Shown: piece by piece, positions 287 to 51,950 of the stretch
Numbering within the stretch: the stretch's first letter is position 1
Layout: each line of letters starts with the position of its first letter
Assembly: GCA_965649295.1 (NCBI GenBank)
Contig: CBFGKH010000002.1
Span: 64,001-128,000, forward strand
DNA: 64,000 bases
Reading direction: 5' to 3'
DNA from: a candidate division WOR-3 bacterium
GTDB taxonomy: Bacteria; Hydrothermota; Tepidihabitantia; Tepidihabitantales; Tepidihabitantaceae
The notes under the pieces: generated by a model
The model's input: the letters and a program-made list of their open reading frames with translations, nothing else
What the model was told of the DNA's origin: nothing
Databases searched by the model: none
Translations under genes and position numbers: made by a program

Positions 287-637
287 CGGGCAAGTGTGCC
301 CAAACCAGCGCCCAAGTCAACTGGTGGCAATAATGCCACCGGGTAATGCCATTGGGATTATGGTAGTCGTGGCTCCCTGCTCTCCGGTCAGCGCCAGCAG
401 ATACTAGACTTCGCCAAGCACAATGGCTGCTATTCTGTCGAAGCCTTGGCCGAGGAGTAGCAGACCAGGCTCAACCCGACTCCGGACTACTGGCACTTAC
501 TTCTGTGTCCCGAAGTAGGCGGCTAGCGGTTGAGTCGGAACGTGGTCTTGGCCGACTGGGCCGTCACCAGCCTAAGTACCCGAGAAACCTGCGGATAGGA
601 GCCGGGTTCAGGCTGGCATCGTCGCGACAATGGTCAA

Positions 638-917
638 GGGGGGAGTGACTCCCGGGGTGAGTCGCCAAGGCAGGGTCAGGGCGAGTTTTGGTTCGGATTG
701 CGGGTCGAGTTACGTGTGCAAGTCCTTGGTCAGTAGCGAGTTGAGTTGAGCTAACAGGGTCGGGTCGAAGTCGTAGCGCAGCGGCGGAGCAAGGTGCGGG
801 CGCAGATTCAGGTCGAGGTTGGGCACGAGGATGGAGTCGAGGTGGGAATGGAGCTCGGGCAGCAGCGAACAGGTGAACTGAGCGATGAGCTCGGTATGGG
901 CAGCCGGGACCGATTTC
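638..917. repeat. 12-bp-phased degenerate array 1 (23 units) with palindromic cap GGGAGTGACTCCC
   Basis: Cut into 12-mers from 642: A at position 7 in 20/23 units and G at position 8 in 16/23. Abuts the helicase stop codon. Confidence 0.85.
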
Positions 918-2927
918 TTAGAACCGGCGGTTCCAGGGATTTCGTCTGATGATTGCCTGAATCTGTTCGTCGGTGGGTGGGCCGGTGTGGGTTTCGAGCG
1001 AACAGAGGCCGTCGGACTTCATCAGGGCCTGGGCTTCGGGTGTGAGGAACCGGGTTAGCTGGGCATAGGCGTGGCCGTCGCCCAGGGCAAAGCGTTTGTA
1101 GTAGTAGCGGAGCGGAAAGAGGACATAGAGCCAGTCGCGGGCGCGGGTGAGCGCGACATAGAAGAGCCGTCGTTCTTCCTCGATGCTCTCTTCGTCTTCG
1201 GTGGCCATATCCGAAGGTATCATTCCGTCGGCAGCGTGAATCACATAGACGACCTTCCATTCACAGCCCTTGGCAGAGTGCATTGTCGAGAGTACGAGCC
1301 AGTCTTCGTCGCGGTGGGGCGGGCCGGCAAGGTCGGCGGTTGAGTCGGGCGGGTCCAGGGTCAGGTCGGAAATGAAGTTGGCGCGGCTGCGGTAGCGGCC
1401 GGCAACGCCGACGAGCTGTTCGAGGTCGCGTTCGCGGGGCACGGGATTGTCGTAGAGGCGGAGCAGCAATGGCGCGTAGAACTCGCGCACCCGTTCGACT
1501 TGGGACGCAACCGAGAGGTGCTCGTCGGCGCGGAGTTCAACGAGCAGCCGGGCAAGCCGGTGGTAGTCAGGCTGGGCAGCCGCGGGCAGTTCGATGTCGC
1601 CGAGGCGGGCGAGGTCGTAACCGCGTTCCTCAAGGTCGGCCATGAATCGCTCGGCGGTGCGCGGACCAATGCCATCGAACATCTCGAGCACGCGGAACCA
1701 GCTCATCTCGTCGCGCGGGTTCTCGACAATGCGTAGAAACGCGAGCAGGTCCTTGACGTGGGCGGCTTCGAGAAACTTGAGTCCGCCGTACTTGTGATAG
1801 GGGATGTTGCGCCGGGTGAGCTCGATTTCGAGTTGGTCGGAGTGGTGGCCGGCGCGGAAGAGGACGGCCTGGTGCTGGAGCTTGATGCCGTTCTCGCGGT
1901 GCTGGAGGATGGTGTCACAGACCACCCGTACCTGTTCGTCTTCGTCGCGACAGACGATTAGCCGTGGCCGCTCCTGGCTTTCGCGGCGCGACCAGAGGTT
2001 CTTGGTGTAGCGGAACCGGGCCGGCTGCATCACGGCGTTGGCCAGGGCGAGAATCGGGCCAGTGGAACGGTAGTTCTCTTCGAGTGTGACGACGGTTGTG
2101 CCCGGGAACTGGTTGGGGAAGTCGAGGATGTTTTTGATGGTGGCGGCGCGGAACGAGTAGATGGATTGGGCGTCATCGCCGACCACGGTGATGTTGCGGT
2201 TCTGCTGGCGCAGGCGCTGCAGGATTTCAGCCTGGATGATGTTGGTGTCCTGGTATTCGTCAACCAGGATGTGCTCGAACCGACCCGCCATCAGCTCGGC
2301 AATCGCCGGTATTTCGAGGGTCGCATTCCAGAAGAGGAGCAGGTCGTCGTAGTCAAGGGTCTGCTTCTGCTGCTTGCGTCGGTTGTACTCGTTGAAGATG
2401 AGGCGCAGGCCGGGTTCGGCTTCAAGGCACCACGGGTATTCGCGCCTGAGCACTCGGTCGAGCGGCTCGCGGGAGTTGACGACGCGCGAGTAGATGGCGC
2501 GGATGGTGTGTTTGCGGGGAAAGCGCTTCTCCTTGGCCGCAAACCCGAGCCGGGTGCGGATAAGACCGAGCAGGTCAGCGGAGTCGCCTTCGTCCATCAC
2601 CGTGAAGTCAGGGGAGAGACCGACCGCGCGGCCATATTGGCGAAGGAGGCGATTGGCGATGGCGTGGAACGTGCCGCCCCAGACTTTGGCGGTGGAGTGG
2701 CGGCTGACCGATTCGGCGCGGCGTAGCATCTCCTGGGCAGCGCGGCGGGTGAAGGTCAGTAGCAGGATGCGTTCGGCTGGGACGCCGGAGCGAATCAGAT
2801 AGGCGACGCGGTAGGCAAGGGTGTTGGTCTTGCCGGTGCCGGCGCCGGCGATGATGAGCAGCGGGCCGTCACCGTGGGTGACTGCCTGGCGCTGCTGGGG
2901 GTTGAGTTTGTCGAGCCAGTCGGACAT
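918..2927 (-). CDS. ATP-dependent DNA helicase, UvrD/PcrA/Rep family
   Basis: LNPQQRQAV, AGAGTGKT, VDEYQD, VGDDAQSIYSFR, STMHSAKGCEW and EERRLFYVALTRA motifs. Start taken at MSDWLDKL. Confidence 0.95.
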   Translation of the reverse strand: MSDWLDKLNPQQRQAVTHGDGPLLIIAGAGTGKTNTLAYRVAYLIRSGVPAERILLLTFTRRAAQEMLRRAESVSRHSTAKVWGGTFHAIANRLLRQYGRAVGLSPDFTVMDEGDSADLLGLIRTRLGFAAKEKRFPRKHTIRAIYSRVVNSREPLDRVLRREYPWCLEAEPGLRLIFNEYNRRKQQKQTLDYDDLLLFWNATLEIPAIAELMAGRFEHILVDEYQDTNIIQAEILQRLRQQNRNITVVGDDAQSIYSFRAATIKNILDFPNQFPGTTVVTLEENYRSTGPILALANAVMQPARFRYTKNLWSRRESQERPRLIVCRDEDEQVRVVCDTILQHRENGIKLQHQAVLFRAGHHSDQLEIELTRRNIPYHKYGGLKFLEAAHVKDLLAFLRIVENPRDEMSWFRVLEMFDGIGPRTAERFMADLEERGYDLARLGDIELPAAAQPDYHRLARLLVELRADEHLSVASQVERVREFYAPLLLRLYDNPVPRERDLEQLVGVAGRYRSRANFISDLTLDPPDSTADLAGPPHRDEDWLVLSTMHSAKGCEWKVVYVIHAADGMIPSDMATEDEESIEEERRLFYVALTRARDWLYVLFPLRYYYKRFALGDGHAYAQLTRFLTPEAQALMKSDGLCSLETHTGPPTDEQIQAIIRRNPWNRRF

Positions 2928-2979
2928 CGGTGGAGTATACAAAAGAGAGGAGAAGGGATACAGGACGGAGCAAGGCAGA

Positions 2980-3028
2980 GGGCGAGAAGCCAGAGCGCAG
3001 AAGCCAAGAGGCAAAGGTCAAGAGGCAA
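2980..3028 (+). repeat. Degenerate heptamer tandem repeat (RAGNCAA-like)
   Basis: gggcgag aagccag agcgcag aagccaa gaggcaa aggtcaa gaggcaa. Confidence 0.6.
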
Positions 3029-3192
3029 GGTGCCAGTTGCAGAGCGGGGCAGGTGGAAGGAGGGGGCGAAGGTCAGGGCGAGGCGGATTGGGGGTTGACG
3101 CGAGCTAGGTGGGTCGTATTCTCTTGCAGTAACGCACAGTCGCGCCAGTCAAGACCAGTCAGTCGGTACGTGCGTTATGTAAGGAGGACAGG

Positions 3193-14648: not shown

Positions 14649-14965
14649 ACAAGGTGAATTGCTGGCCTGTCGTCAGGCAACGCCAGCAGTAGTCTTCGAA
14701 GCCTGACCGCAAGCTAGTCCTCTGGCAGCTTCCGGAGCAGAATCAGGCACGCGTCCCCAAGCAGTGCGAATAGTCGTCACTGGCGTAGCCAACGAAGCGG
14801 CCTGGCAATGCCAGTCAGGGGCCGTCGCGATGGCACATCCGCAGGCCCAGTTGCAGGTGGTCATGCAATAAGACCGGCAAGCCGACTTAGGAGCGATGTC
14901 AGGACAGGCTTGTGGACTGGCCGAACAAGAGGCTCGGGAGACCATCCCGGGGATGGAGGAGGGGG
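14649..14965. repeat. 12-bp-phased degenerate array 3 (24 units plus GC-rich cap)
   Basis: 12-mers from 14649: purine at position 4 in 22/24 and G at position 5 in 19/24. Ends in GGGAGACCATCCCGGGGATGGAGGAGGGGG. Confidence 0.75.
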
Positions 14966-15826: not shown

Positions 15827-16549
15827 GTGAGAATCAAGTTTCTGGGGCATGCCGCCTTTCTGCTGACGGCGAGCGACGGCACGCGGATAGTTACTGACCC
15901 GTATAAGCCGGGTGCGTTTGACGGTGCTATCAAGTATGGGCCAATCCGGGAGGCTGCCGATTATGCGACGGTCAGCCACGACCATCTTGACCACAACAAC
16001 GCGGCTGAGCTGCCGGGCAAACCGGTAGTGATAGGGCCAAGCCAAGAGTCAAAAGCCAAGAGTCAAGAGCCAAGAGGACGAAGCGAGAAGCTAGAGGGGC
16101 GCGAGCCGATTATCCGAACCCGGGCCGGCAGCGTGGTGATTACCGGGTTTGATTCGTTTCATGACACCGAGCAGGGAGCGCAGCGGGGGAAGAACATTAT
16201 CTTTCTGTTTGAGGATGCGGGGCTGCGGCTGGCGCATCTTGGTGACCTCGGGCATGTGCCCAAGGAGCAGGCGGCGGCGATTGGCCGGGTAGATGTCCTG
16301 CTGCTGCCGGTGGGCGGCTATTACACGATTGGGCCGAACGAGGCGGCGAAGGCAACTGAGCTGCTGGGTGCCCGGGTGATTATTCCGATGCACTTTGCGA
16401 CCAAGAAGACGAATATGCCGATTGCCGGTGTTGAGGAGTTTCTGCGCGGACGGCCGAATGTGAAGCGATTGGGGACGAGTGAGGTTGAGGTGACGCCGGC
16501 CAGTCTGCCCCCAGCACCGGAGATTTGGGTGCTGGAACACGCACTCTAG
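15827..16549 (+). CDS. MBL-fold metal-dependent hydrolase
   Basis: LGHAAF, TDPY, SHDHLDH, HLGDLGH and IPMHF motifs; GTG start after GGAGG. Confidence 0.88.
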   Translation: MRIKFLGHAAFLLTASDGTRIVTDPYKPGAFDGAIKYGPIREAADYATVSHDHLDHNNAAELPGKPVVIGPSQESKAKSQEPRGRSEKLEGREPIIRTRAGSVVITGFDSFHDTEQGAQRGKNIIFLFEDAGLRLAHLGDLGHVPKEQAAAIGRVDVLLLPVGGYYTIGPNEAAKATELLGARVIIPMHFATKKTNMPIAGVEEFLRGRPNVKRLGTSEVEVTPASLPPAPEIWVLEHAL

Positions 16550-38386: not shown

Positions 38387-38764
38387 CTAGGGCGAGGGTG
38401 GAGCGCTGATGTCGAAGACACCGGTGCGGATCTGAGCGAGCACAGCCGGGTCCAGGCCGCGGGCAGCCCACTTGGCGATGAGTATCTCGGCAGCGCGGGC
38501 AAAGGCGTCACCGGAGATGCCCTGCTGCCGCGAGAGGCGAAAGAGCTCGCGGCCAAAGTCGAGATACGGAACATAGAGCACGGTCTGGACACCGTTCTGG
38601 TTGAGTACGGTCTTCACCGCGGTCTCCATCTCGCAGAGCGAGACCACGGCGGCAGCGTAGCGTTCGAGCATCTGTTGCCGCAGTTCGTCGAGTGTCTGCT
38701 TGGTGCGGCCAGTGTCGAACTTCCGGTTCCAGCGCCTGATTCTACTGTTGGCATCAGCGGCCAT
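38387..38764 (-). CDS. Small basic helical protein resembling rudivirus (SIRV2-type) major capsid protein
   Basis: Strong AAGGAGG RBS; motifs R..W..KF, V..VL...G, Y..FG....R and LDPAVL. Compared by eye with the SIRV2 coat protein recalled from memory. Confidence 0.7.
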   Translation of the reverse strand: MAADANSRIRRWNRKFDTGRTKQTLDELRQQMLERYAAAVVSLCEMETAVKTVLNQNGVQTVLYVPYLDFGRELFRLSRQQGISGDAFARAAEILIAKWAARGLDPAVLAQIRTGVFDISAPPSP

Positions 38765-38920: not shown

Positions 38921-39163
38921 GGGGGAGTCACTCCCGGGATGAGATGGGGTACTGGTTGCGGGGCTATTTGACACAGCAGGGTGAGAAGCTGTCGCAAGGC
39001 GACGGCGAAGGCTTGGGCCGGAGGCAGGCGTGGCTTGAGTTGCCGGAACAAGGGCGACACGAGAACCGCAATTAGCGGCGAGGGCTGTGGGCTAGCGAGC
39101 AGCAGGGGCAGTCAGGAATCGAGCGATGGTGGCAGCGCTAGGGCTAGGGCCGGGTGCAGGCTT
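38921..39163. repeat. 12-bp-phased degenerate array 2 (20 units) with palindromic cap GGGAGTCACTCCC
   Basis: 12-mers from 38924: A at position 7 in 16/20 and G at position 8 in 16/20. Cap is 21/23 identical to that of array 1. Confidence 0.85.
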
Positions 39164-51650: not shown

Positions 51651-51950
51651 CCCCCCATCCCGGGGACTGTCCCGGGAGTGGTCTCGGATTGGCTCTACGA
51701 GCTGCTTGCTCGCGTGGTTTGTCCGGTTCTTGGTGGTGCTATTGCGCGAGGAGTTGCCCAAGCGGTCTGGGGCTGGGCCGGTTCGGCTGATTGGCTAACT
51801 GCTCCTAGGCCCGATTCGGCGATTGCTGGCCAAGACGTTCTTGCCAGCGCTGGGTAATGCTCTTTTCTAGCTCTCTCGGCTGCTGCTGGTCAGCATGTTG
51901 GGCAGCGGGCTGGTCAGCAGGTGCCGATAGGGGTCTGGTCGAGACCGATG
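51651..51950. repeat. 12-bp-phased degenerate array 4 (about 24 units, one 1-bp slip) with cap CCCCCCATCCCGGGGACTGTCCCGGG
   Basis: T at position 9 in 9/9 units from 51662 and in 10/14 units from 51783. Abuts the TPR gene stop. Confidence 0.75.

Follow-up and report, generated by a model that had tools for sequence, protein, structure and literature searches.

Nucleosome-positioning sequences, parS and the sites of H-NS offer a weak periodic signal or a strong site to a wrapping or polymerising protein. REP and BIME elements, which go with RAYT, are short GC-rich intergenic palindromes present in many copies. The rut sites of Rho are 60-90 nt long with spacers of at least 7 nt and no exact period, according to the available part of the source (PMC5314796). 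The vrRNAs of VIPR, in the available portion of their description, are RNA guides in which NN alternates with an invariant GGY and which are read by a protein filament (10.64898/2026.04.26.720920). In the filamentous viruses AFV1 and SIRV2, every capsid dimer occupies 12 bp of DNA in the A form, one turn takes 9.3 dimers in AFV1 and 14.7 in SIRV2, and in SIRV2 the two-fold axis of the protein passes through that of the DNA, as stated in the accessible part of the report (PMC5517147).

The window analysed here is the whole stretch of 64,000 nucleotides, part of contig C2 of a candidate division WOR-3 genome that comprises 2.28 Mb in 19 contigs and is rated 100% complete. Near its start a phased track of 23 twelve-base units was found at 641..916 on the minus strand, scoring 43 bits in register and at most 1 bit in the other 11 registers, with the other tracks of its class (class D) in the same genome as the reference. 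A pyrimidine pair occupies one fixed column of the minus strand in 91% of the units. Unlike nucleosome-positioning, parS or H-NS sites, the tracks of this genome have a period of 12.0 and not 10-11, a fixed step count and sharp ends, and their candidate partner is of viral capsid type.

The track at 641-917 and its flanks

The original prediction had described the locus as 23 gap-free 12-mers, and in its frame (642-917) the units are indeed gap-free and all different (23/23), with A at position 7 in 20/23, G at position 8 in 16/23 and G at position 1 in 17/23. Position 7 is a purine in every unit (23/23), and position 6 is G or C in 22/23. The phased (G/C)AG was recovered, but it is not the only conserved element as had been claimed, since T at position 10 (14/23) and C at position 12 (13/23) are held too. 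A period-6 overtone accompanies the period of 12. The phased G-statistic reached 152 against 35 +/- 9 in 300 dinucleotide shuffles, none of which was as high (0/300; z 13), and the best non-integer period was 12.0. Adjacent units share 0.43 of their bases and distant ones 0.31-0.46, the mean over the units being about 0.42; identity does not fall with distance, so a slippage gradient is absent, and Tandem Repeats Finder listed nothing at 642-917. A slippage minisatellite was rejected on these two grounds, and a CRISPR array was rejected on the absence of near-identical repeats with unique spacers and on the distinctness of all units, in agreement with the prediction that the array is neither. 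The companion claim, that phase is kept while sequence is not, is supported here and also by the gaps between orthologous tracks at other copies. Absent from that prediction were the palindromic head, the genome-wide family and the capsid-like partner genes.

The track carries a head at 641..653, a perfect 13-bp palindrome centred on 647 as read from the sequence, and the unit next to it, 654-665, resembles it. This head type is common to 13 tracks of the genome. Beyond the head, the intergenic stretch 287..640 (minus strand) holds neither the leader motifs A, B and C of other tracks nor a promoter or terminator consensus, and its best IHF-like site has two mismatches. Promoter and terminator scans and RNA folding of both strands around the track gave nothing. 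The neighbour at the distal end, outside the element, is a UvrD/Rep helicase gene (918..2927, minus strand; Pfam UvrD-helicase, E 8e-69), whose stop codon at 918-920 abuts the track; the other flanking gene, on the minus strand, we take to be nucleotide-sugar dehydratase-like by its GGAGFIG motif.

The array had been thought to start right after the helicase stop. Its frame does reach the stop codon at 918-920, but the strong phase fades near 899, and it is the opposite end, at 641-653, that is conserved and palindromic, so the array ends, and does not start, at the helicase. The implied link to the helicase was not borne out: among 11 family orthologues, two had no downstream DNA, and none of the nine that were scored carries a clear array (best G 53), while the 84 copies of the track in this genome adjoin unrelated genes. 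No close orthologue of the 641-917 locus was found among the family orthologues and 44 metagenome helicase loci, the latter being too distant for orthologous strains, with near-full-length matches at most 71% identical. Strong period-12 stretches were seen near the same helicase in five distant metagenome contigs (L066, L067, L069, L073, L076). Downstream of the helicase at L011 (G017) there is a short inverted repeat like a class A-C head, with no track.

Genome-wide distribution and evolution of the tracks

A model-free scan of the genome revealed an excess of period-12 peaks, the strong ones largely intergenic. Many of the peaks have a palindromic head at one end and then, at a constant distance from it, leader motif A, B or C; a fourth group, class D, has a head of the 641-653 type without these leaders. 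A profile scan returned 106 peaks, of which 84 were kept at a score of at least 19, the 22 dropped ones lying nearly all inside long ORFs. The 84 tracks are nearly all intergenic, 70 belonging to classes A-C and 14 to class D; since the profiles were trained on 43 of the 84, only the other tracks are independent detections. Within the window, a second class D track with the same head lies at 38923..39162 (minus strand), about 160 bp upstream of a capsid-like gene, a track with leader motif B at 14650..14889 (plus strand), and one with an A/B/C-type unit profile at 51674..51913 (minus strand), the latter two given as cores of 20 units.

In pooled profiles the signal holds to unit 22-23 and then drops sharply. 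Track length has a median of 24 units and a range of 18-31, and all tracks pooled gave a period of 12.0 with no power at 10.5 or 11. Selection by leader motif only gave 62 hits, and 20 headless ones were set aside, 17 of them because motif A, a palindrome, had been read in reverse. This left 42 hits, of which 38 hold a single phase over 20 units, in both halves, and the other four have no track. An IHF-like site with at most one mismatch occurs in 26/70 class A-C leaders versus 37/365 background stretches, and in 3/14 class D copies. As a marker, leader motif A was found in 0/200 other genomes of the phylum, and none of its six viral matches has a track. The heads resemble REP and BIME palindromes, from which the tracks differ by a phased, non-repeating body and even spacing; a REP/BIME system with RAYT was rejected, with no Y1_Tnp (PF01797) match in the genome by a search whose control matched 6/14. 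The 12-mer counts of the genome are dominated by a ~30-base repeat, present 16-20 times, which may be of CRISPR or REP type.

The spacing of the tracks is far more even than chance. The 81 tracks without overlap with predicted ORFs define 66 gaps with a mean of 26.5 kb, a CV of 0.45 and a minimum of 11.7 kb, against a mean CV of 0.88 in 5000 random intergenic placements, where the CV never fell below 0.63 and the smallest gap was 4 kb at most. Even spacing was also found in 260 kb of a second genus, where 20 peaks merged to 15 sites had a CV of 0.39 (p 0.0008). The genes flanking the tracks are unrelated to each other across copies. The track strand splits 33 against 37 relative to GC skew in classes A-C, and 4 against 10 in class D. 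The rho gene (C3:33942-35014) sits on the head side of a track, which with 84 tracks may be chance.

Gene direction around the tracks bears on the proposal that 641-917 acts as RNA, namely as a rut-like tract in the helicase 3' trailer onto which Rho loads, with YC pairs fitting the Rho ring. On the helicase sense strand the tract is C-rich (skew 0.41) and unstructured (z 0.39) and begins at the stop codon, as a rut site might, and YC occurs at two columns, in 61% and 57% of the units. Rho is encoded in the genome, and the upstream gene runs into the track in 9/13 class D copies versus 38.5% expected (p 0.025). In classes A-C, however, the direction of flanking genes equals the background, the upstream gene running into the track in 25/70 copies and another 25/70 lying between divergent genes, so that 70 of the 84 copies show no transcription bias. 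Furthermore, the tracks keep strict phase over about 280 bp, 3-4 times the 60-90 nt given for rut sites in the available part of PMC5314796, and the even spacing, the palindromic consensus of the relatives and the link to capsid genes are left unexplained. A rut-like role fits the 641-917 copy better than it fits the track family; as an account of the locus we regard it as improbable.

How the tracks change was followed in four orthologous pairs, three of which come from the same three genomes. Identity is 75-87% within the tracks and 68-86% at fourfold sites of the adjacent gene; one pair has no gap, one a 1-base gap at the edge, one an 11-base gap near the edge and one a 12-base gap inside, versus 7-11 gaps in the flanks. 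Orthologous tracks thus drift at about the synonymous rate yet keep their phase. It had been suggested that indels restricted to multiples of 12 be looked for at orthologous loci; run at other copies, this comparison found that 9/22 gaps within tracks are multiples of 12 versus 2/89 outside, a count that comes from 18 partly dependent homologous pairs and is favoured by the choice of tracks for periodicity. Relatives hold near-perfect young tracks, and two copies in the source genome share just a 444-bp block of track plus leader, 82% identical, between unrelated genes. On these two findings the tracks were likely born by amplification or copying, followed by drift in which length and register are kept. 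A recent class D duplicate pair (C10:72058, C5:24723) shows a one-base difference in the G run of the head, so that exact register is not required of the last unit. Several young tracks have one stop-free frame and may be annotated as tetrapeptide-repeat proteins (cf. P0086). Different tracks are paired 500-700 bp apart in L134, L136, L143 and L148 (G215, G008) and in L178 (G004).

The near-perfect young tracks, and the drift of the free columns at about the synonymous rate, would also suit a neutral, decaying remnant of an old 12-bp tandem amplification. Neutral decay is opposed by the uniform length, the unbroken phase of the real leader-selected copies (38/38), the gaps that are largely multiples of 12 and the even spacing, for which selection is needed. 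We therefore regard this reading as largely refuted, with very little probability left to it.

Copying by a selfish or semi-selfish module was also considered, in which track and leader insert at intergenic sites, capsid-like proteins coat or package the DNA, and spacing results from exclusion near existing copies. The 444-bp block shared between unrelated genes is of the kind expected, the track sites differ between genera, and the proteins are viral in type. Four related copies lie within 100 kb of another genome, one right behind the end of a capsid-like gene. No mobilising enzyme came to light, however: Y1_Tnp, rve, DDE_Tnp_1 and RVT_1 went unmatched in a genome rated 100% complete, where the search of five transposase and reverse-transcriptase families left one weak partial match to PF02371, beside two tyrosine recombinases. 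As regards a MITE or a non-autonomous IS, the same five families yielded no convincing match to a cognate transposase, and the ends of the tracks were viewed by eye only, in one duplicate pair and the four related copies. In addition, no conserved distal end was seen, the protein family occurs in every tested genome of the order, and orthologous tracks persist between species under selection on phase. A selfish origin of the system is thus rather unlikely. The four related tracks, in genome G020 (L194:11929, L195:8743, L196:2905, L197:7129), have one common head; besides the one behind a capsid-like gene end, two seem by eye to keep a decayed piece of the gene end.

A coding function was weighed together with a guide function, the track being either a dead or cryptic gene of leucine tetrapeptide repeats or, as in VIPR, a guide RNA whose code is non-contiguous. 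One minus frame places leucine at most fourth positions, the dicodon score of 0.15 is within what real genes show (5th percentile 0.10, mean 0.31), and beyond the helicase stop codon the same frame runs on for >100 codons without another stop. The leucine frame nevertheless contains a stop and has no listed start, a stop-free frame occurs in 38/84 tracks versus 45 +/- 4 expected, and orthologous tracks are without the strong codon pattern of the adjacent gene, though their columns are uneven. The likeness to VIPR consists in a fixed motif alternating with variable letters, as far as the available part of its description goes (10.64898/2026.04.26.720920). The track motif is loose in comparison, its step is 12 and its letters drift; at 641-917 a VIPR array was rejected, with period 5 not significant while 12 is, and with no invariant column. 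A guide RNA is opposed by the absence of RNA structure and of any Rfam family match at the track, the matches of that scan being two tRNAs only. Moreover, 108 joined-column readings found no target in the own genome, the best reaching 38 bits against 42 in shuffled order. Both the cryptic gene and the guide RNA are considered highly improbable.

Capsid-like proteins and their linkage to the tracks

The capsid-like gene in the window, at 38387..38764 on the minus strand, encodes a 125-aa protein that is a candidate binder in trans. It matches Pfam PF12193 over most of its length at E 0.0015, below the cut-off, and a single-sequence PDB search returned chance matches only. With a 32-sequence profile of the family, the top PDB matches (E 0.003-0.04) were to coat proteins of SSRV1, SIRV2 and AFV1, with 6wq0, 3j9x, 5w7g and 3fbz among the first matches. 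In VIA, the structure model (pLDDT 90) gave Z 13.6, 12.9, 11.9 and 11.2 to viral coat proteins, which make up the six best rows (Z 9-14), the next row being unrelated at 7.8; Foldseek likewise ranked viral coat proteins first, none at E below 0.001. The modelled protein has the major capsid protein fold of SIRV2 type, the fold of the Adnaviria nucleocapsids (SIRV2 3j9x, SSRV1 6wq0, AFV1 5w7g/3fbz). The 12 bp per dimer reported for AFV1 and SIRV2 in the accessible part of PMC5517147 equals the track period of 12.0, a match of numbers and not of binding. The position of the two-fold axis described there for SIRV2 is what a palindromic step would need (PMC5517147, as far as available). The Adnaviria proteins coat a whole virus genome, whereas here chromosomal paralogues and HTH fusions are found together with discrete 23-step tracks.

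The family counts 1336 representatives at E 0.001 and occurs in 29/29 genomes of the order and in 0/121 others of the phylum. The possibility that these genes belong to a virus or provirus was rejected, the neighbours seen being cellular (an aminotransferase, a ResB-like gene and an ECF sigma factor, among others). Relatives that are 38% identical are found on two viral contigs (L208, L209), next to genes for a glycosyltransferase and a Holliday-junction resolvase; neither contig carries a track within 4 kb of the capsid gene. By eye, two further ORFs on these contigs have capsid-like ends, a possible bridge between the viral and bacterial families. At C5:142562-145159 (L054), four capsid-like genes that have diverged to different degrees lie in one run behind a track, and the run also includes a gene for an ECF-type sigma factor.

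In the source genome the eight capsid-like matches fall at six loci, and five of these six have a track within 800 bp upstream, compared with 112 of the 1906 predicted genes of the genome. In other genomes of the family, tracks were found upstream of capsid-like genes at 14/25 loci and were absent at 11/25, in a sample of the best 29 loci of several hundred matches, 25 of which had 500 bp upstream and several of which come from the same genera. Downstream tracks were found at 0/31 capsid-like loci elsewhere, and tracks in 0/126 control stretches; the head of the 641-653 type stands upstream of capsid-like genes at 9/31 other-genome loci versus 3/126 control stretches. Outside the family, 3/20 capsid-like loci have a track nearby, downstream in two cases. 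A second gene type shows the same arrangement. All four XRE-HTH paralogues of the genome adjoin tracks. Leaders A, B and C precede three of these paralogues, and the predicted start codons of XRE-HTH genes coincide with motifs A and C; in relatives the track is upstream in 21/27 cases and downstream in 1/24. The tail of the XRE-HTH protein aligns with the capsid family at a probability of 92-93%. Since Foldseek of the HTH-fusion model returned HTH domains only, none at E below 0.001, the fold assigned to the tail rests on the profile alignment and the helix layout. Tracks occur in samples from four of the order's five families, and none was found in 310 kb of sequence from four class-mates that lack the protein. 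This order-wide co-occurrence of tracks and proteins counts as one evolutionary event.

A different protein with a 12-bp step might bind the tracks, the capsid-like genes being only regulated neighbours. In fact, family f4 has capsid-like proteins and no track, at 7/7 loci and in 100 kb, and most tracks, 641-917 included, have no capsid-like gene nearby. The period, however, equals the known footprint of the capsid fold (PMC5517147, in its accessible part), and two different gene types with that fold sit behind tracks. A separate binder therefore seems to us a quite unlikely solution.

The internal symmetry of the step is visible in relatives. Taken alone, the 641-917 copy has a reverse-complement symmetry of r 0.32 versus 0.47 in the null, the tracks of the genome taken singly reach 0.45 versus 0.49 for the mirror, and the pooled class D profile of the source genome only 0.56. 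In contrast, the profile pooled from 16 class D tracks of other genomes, not all of them independent, gave r 0.95 against a mirror control of 0.53 and is centred on the same column as the head. The 641-917 copy fits that profile only in register, at 22 bits versus -23 or less. This register match, together with the palindromic profile, indicates that the conserved A of 641-917 is half of a T-S-A core common across genera. In relatives the symmetry might simply have been inherited from a palindromic unit that was amplified.

Proposed docking of capsid-like dimers

A reading of 641-917 as a docking track for capsid-derived, DNA-wrapping dimers that organise the chromosome is the one we lean towards, with a confidence somewhat above even. 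In this docking model, capsid-like dimers would nucleate at the palindromic head and assemble on the track, one per 12-base step. Each step may be a worn-down two-fold site, the consensus in relatives being a palindrome around T-S-A, of which mainly the T, an A when seen on the plus strand, would survive in the 641-917 copy. The product would be a short wrapped filament of about 276 bp, which makes 1.6 turns at the packing of SIRV2. Recurring every 11-60 kb, such filaments might act as structural marks of the chromosome. In classes A-C, the operator-like palindrome and IHF-like site of the leader may recruit the XRE-HTH protein with the capsid-like tail as nucleator; class D copies such as 641-917, which have no leader, would rely on the head alone. 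Copies beside capsid-like or HTH genes could give autoregulation, and the gene-less majority, including 641-917, would mark the chromosome at even intervals. It is the binding of protein to the tracks, the A-form geometry and the chromosomal role that we infer. A bolder version, offered tentatively and with clearly less than even confidence, would have a bacterial order domesticate the coat protein of an archaeal filamentous virus into chromatin. Capsid-like dimers, nucleated at heads or by HTH-capsid proteins at leaders, would wrap 276-bp tracks into A-form nucleosome-like coils every 11-60 kb and partition the chromosome into domains, 641-917 being one hard-wired position.

Neither such tracks nor relatives of this capsid encoded on bacterial chromosomes were found described in the literature searched, which lies outside most subscription journals; a paper citing PF12193 deals, in its available part, with archaeal viruses (10.1101/2025.08.23.671958). 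To the evenly spaced 12-base track system, 641-917 adds a gene-less class D member with a register match to the palindromic consensus. If the docking model is true, the organisation of a bacterial chromosome would be sequence-programmed and virus-derived, with a DNA positioning code of period 12 and not the 10-11 of B-DNA binders, and with A-form wrapping inside a cell. A capsid fold reported, in the searchable literature, only from archaeal viruses would then serve as a cellular DNA-binding module. Mechanism aside, there are 84 phase-locked, evenly spaced tracks under selection on length and register that no tested family explains. The claim is directly testable because its parts are small, a protein of 125 aa and 280 bp of DNA. 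Elsewhere in the window, two intergenic tracts rich in purines (2972-3040 and 16039-16076) show a rhythm of 7 bases.
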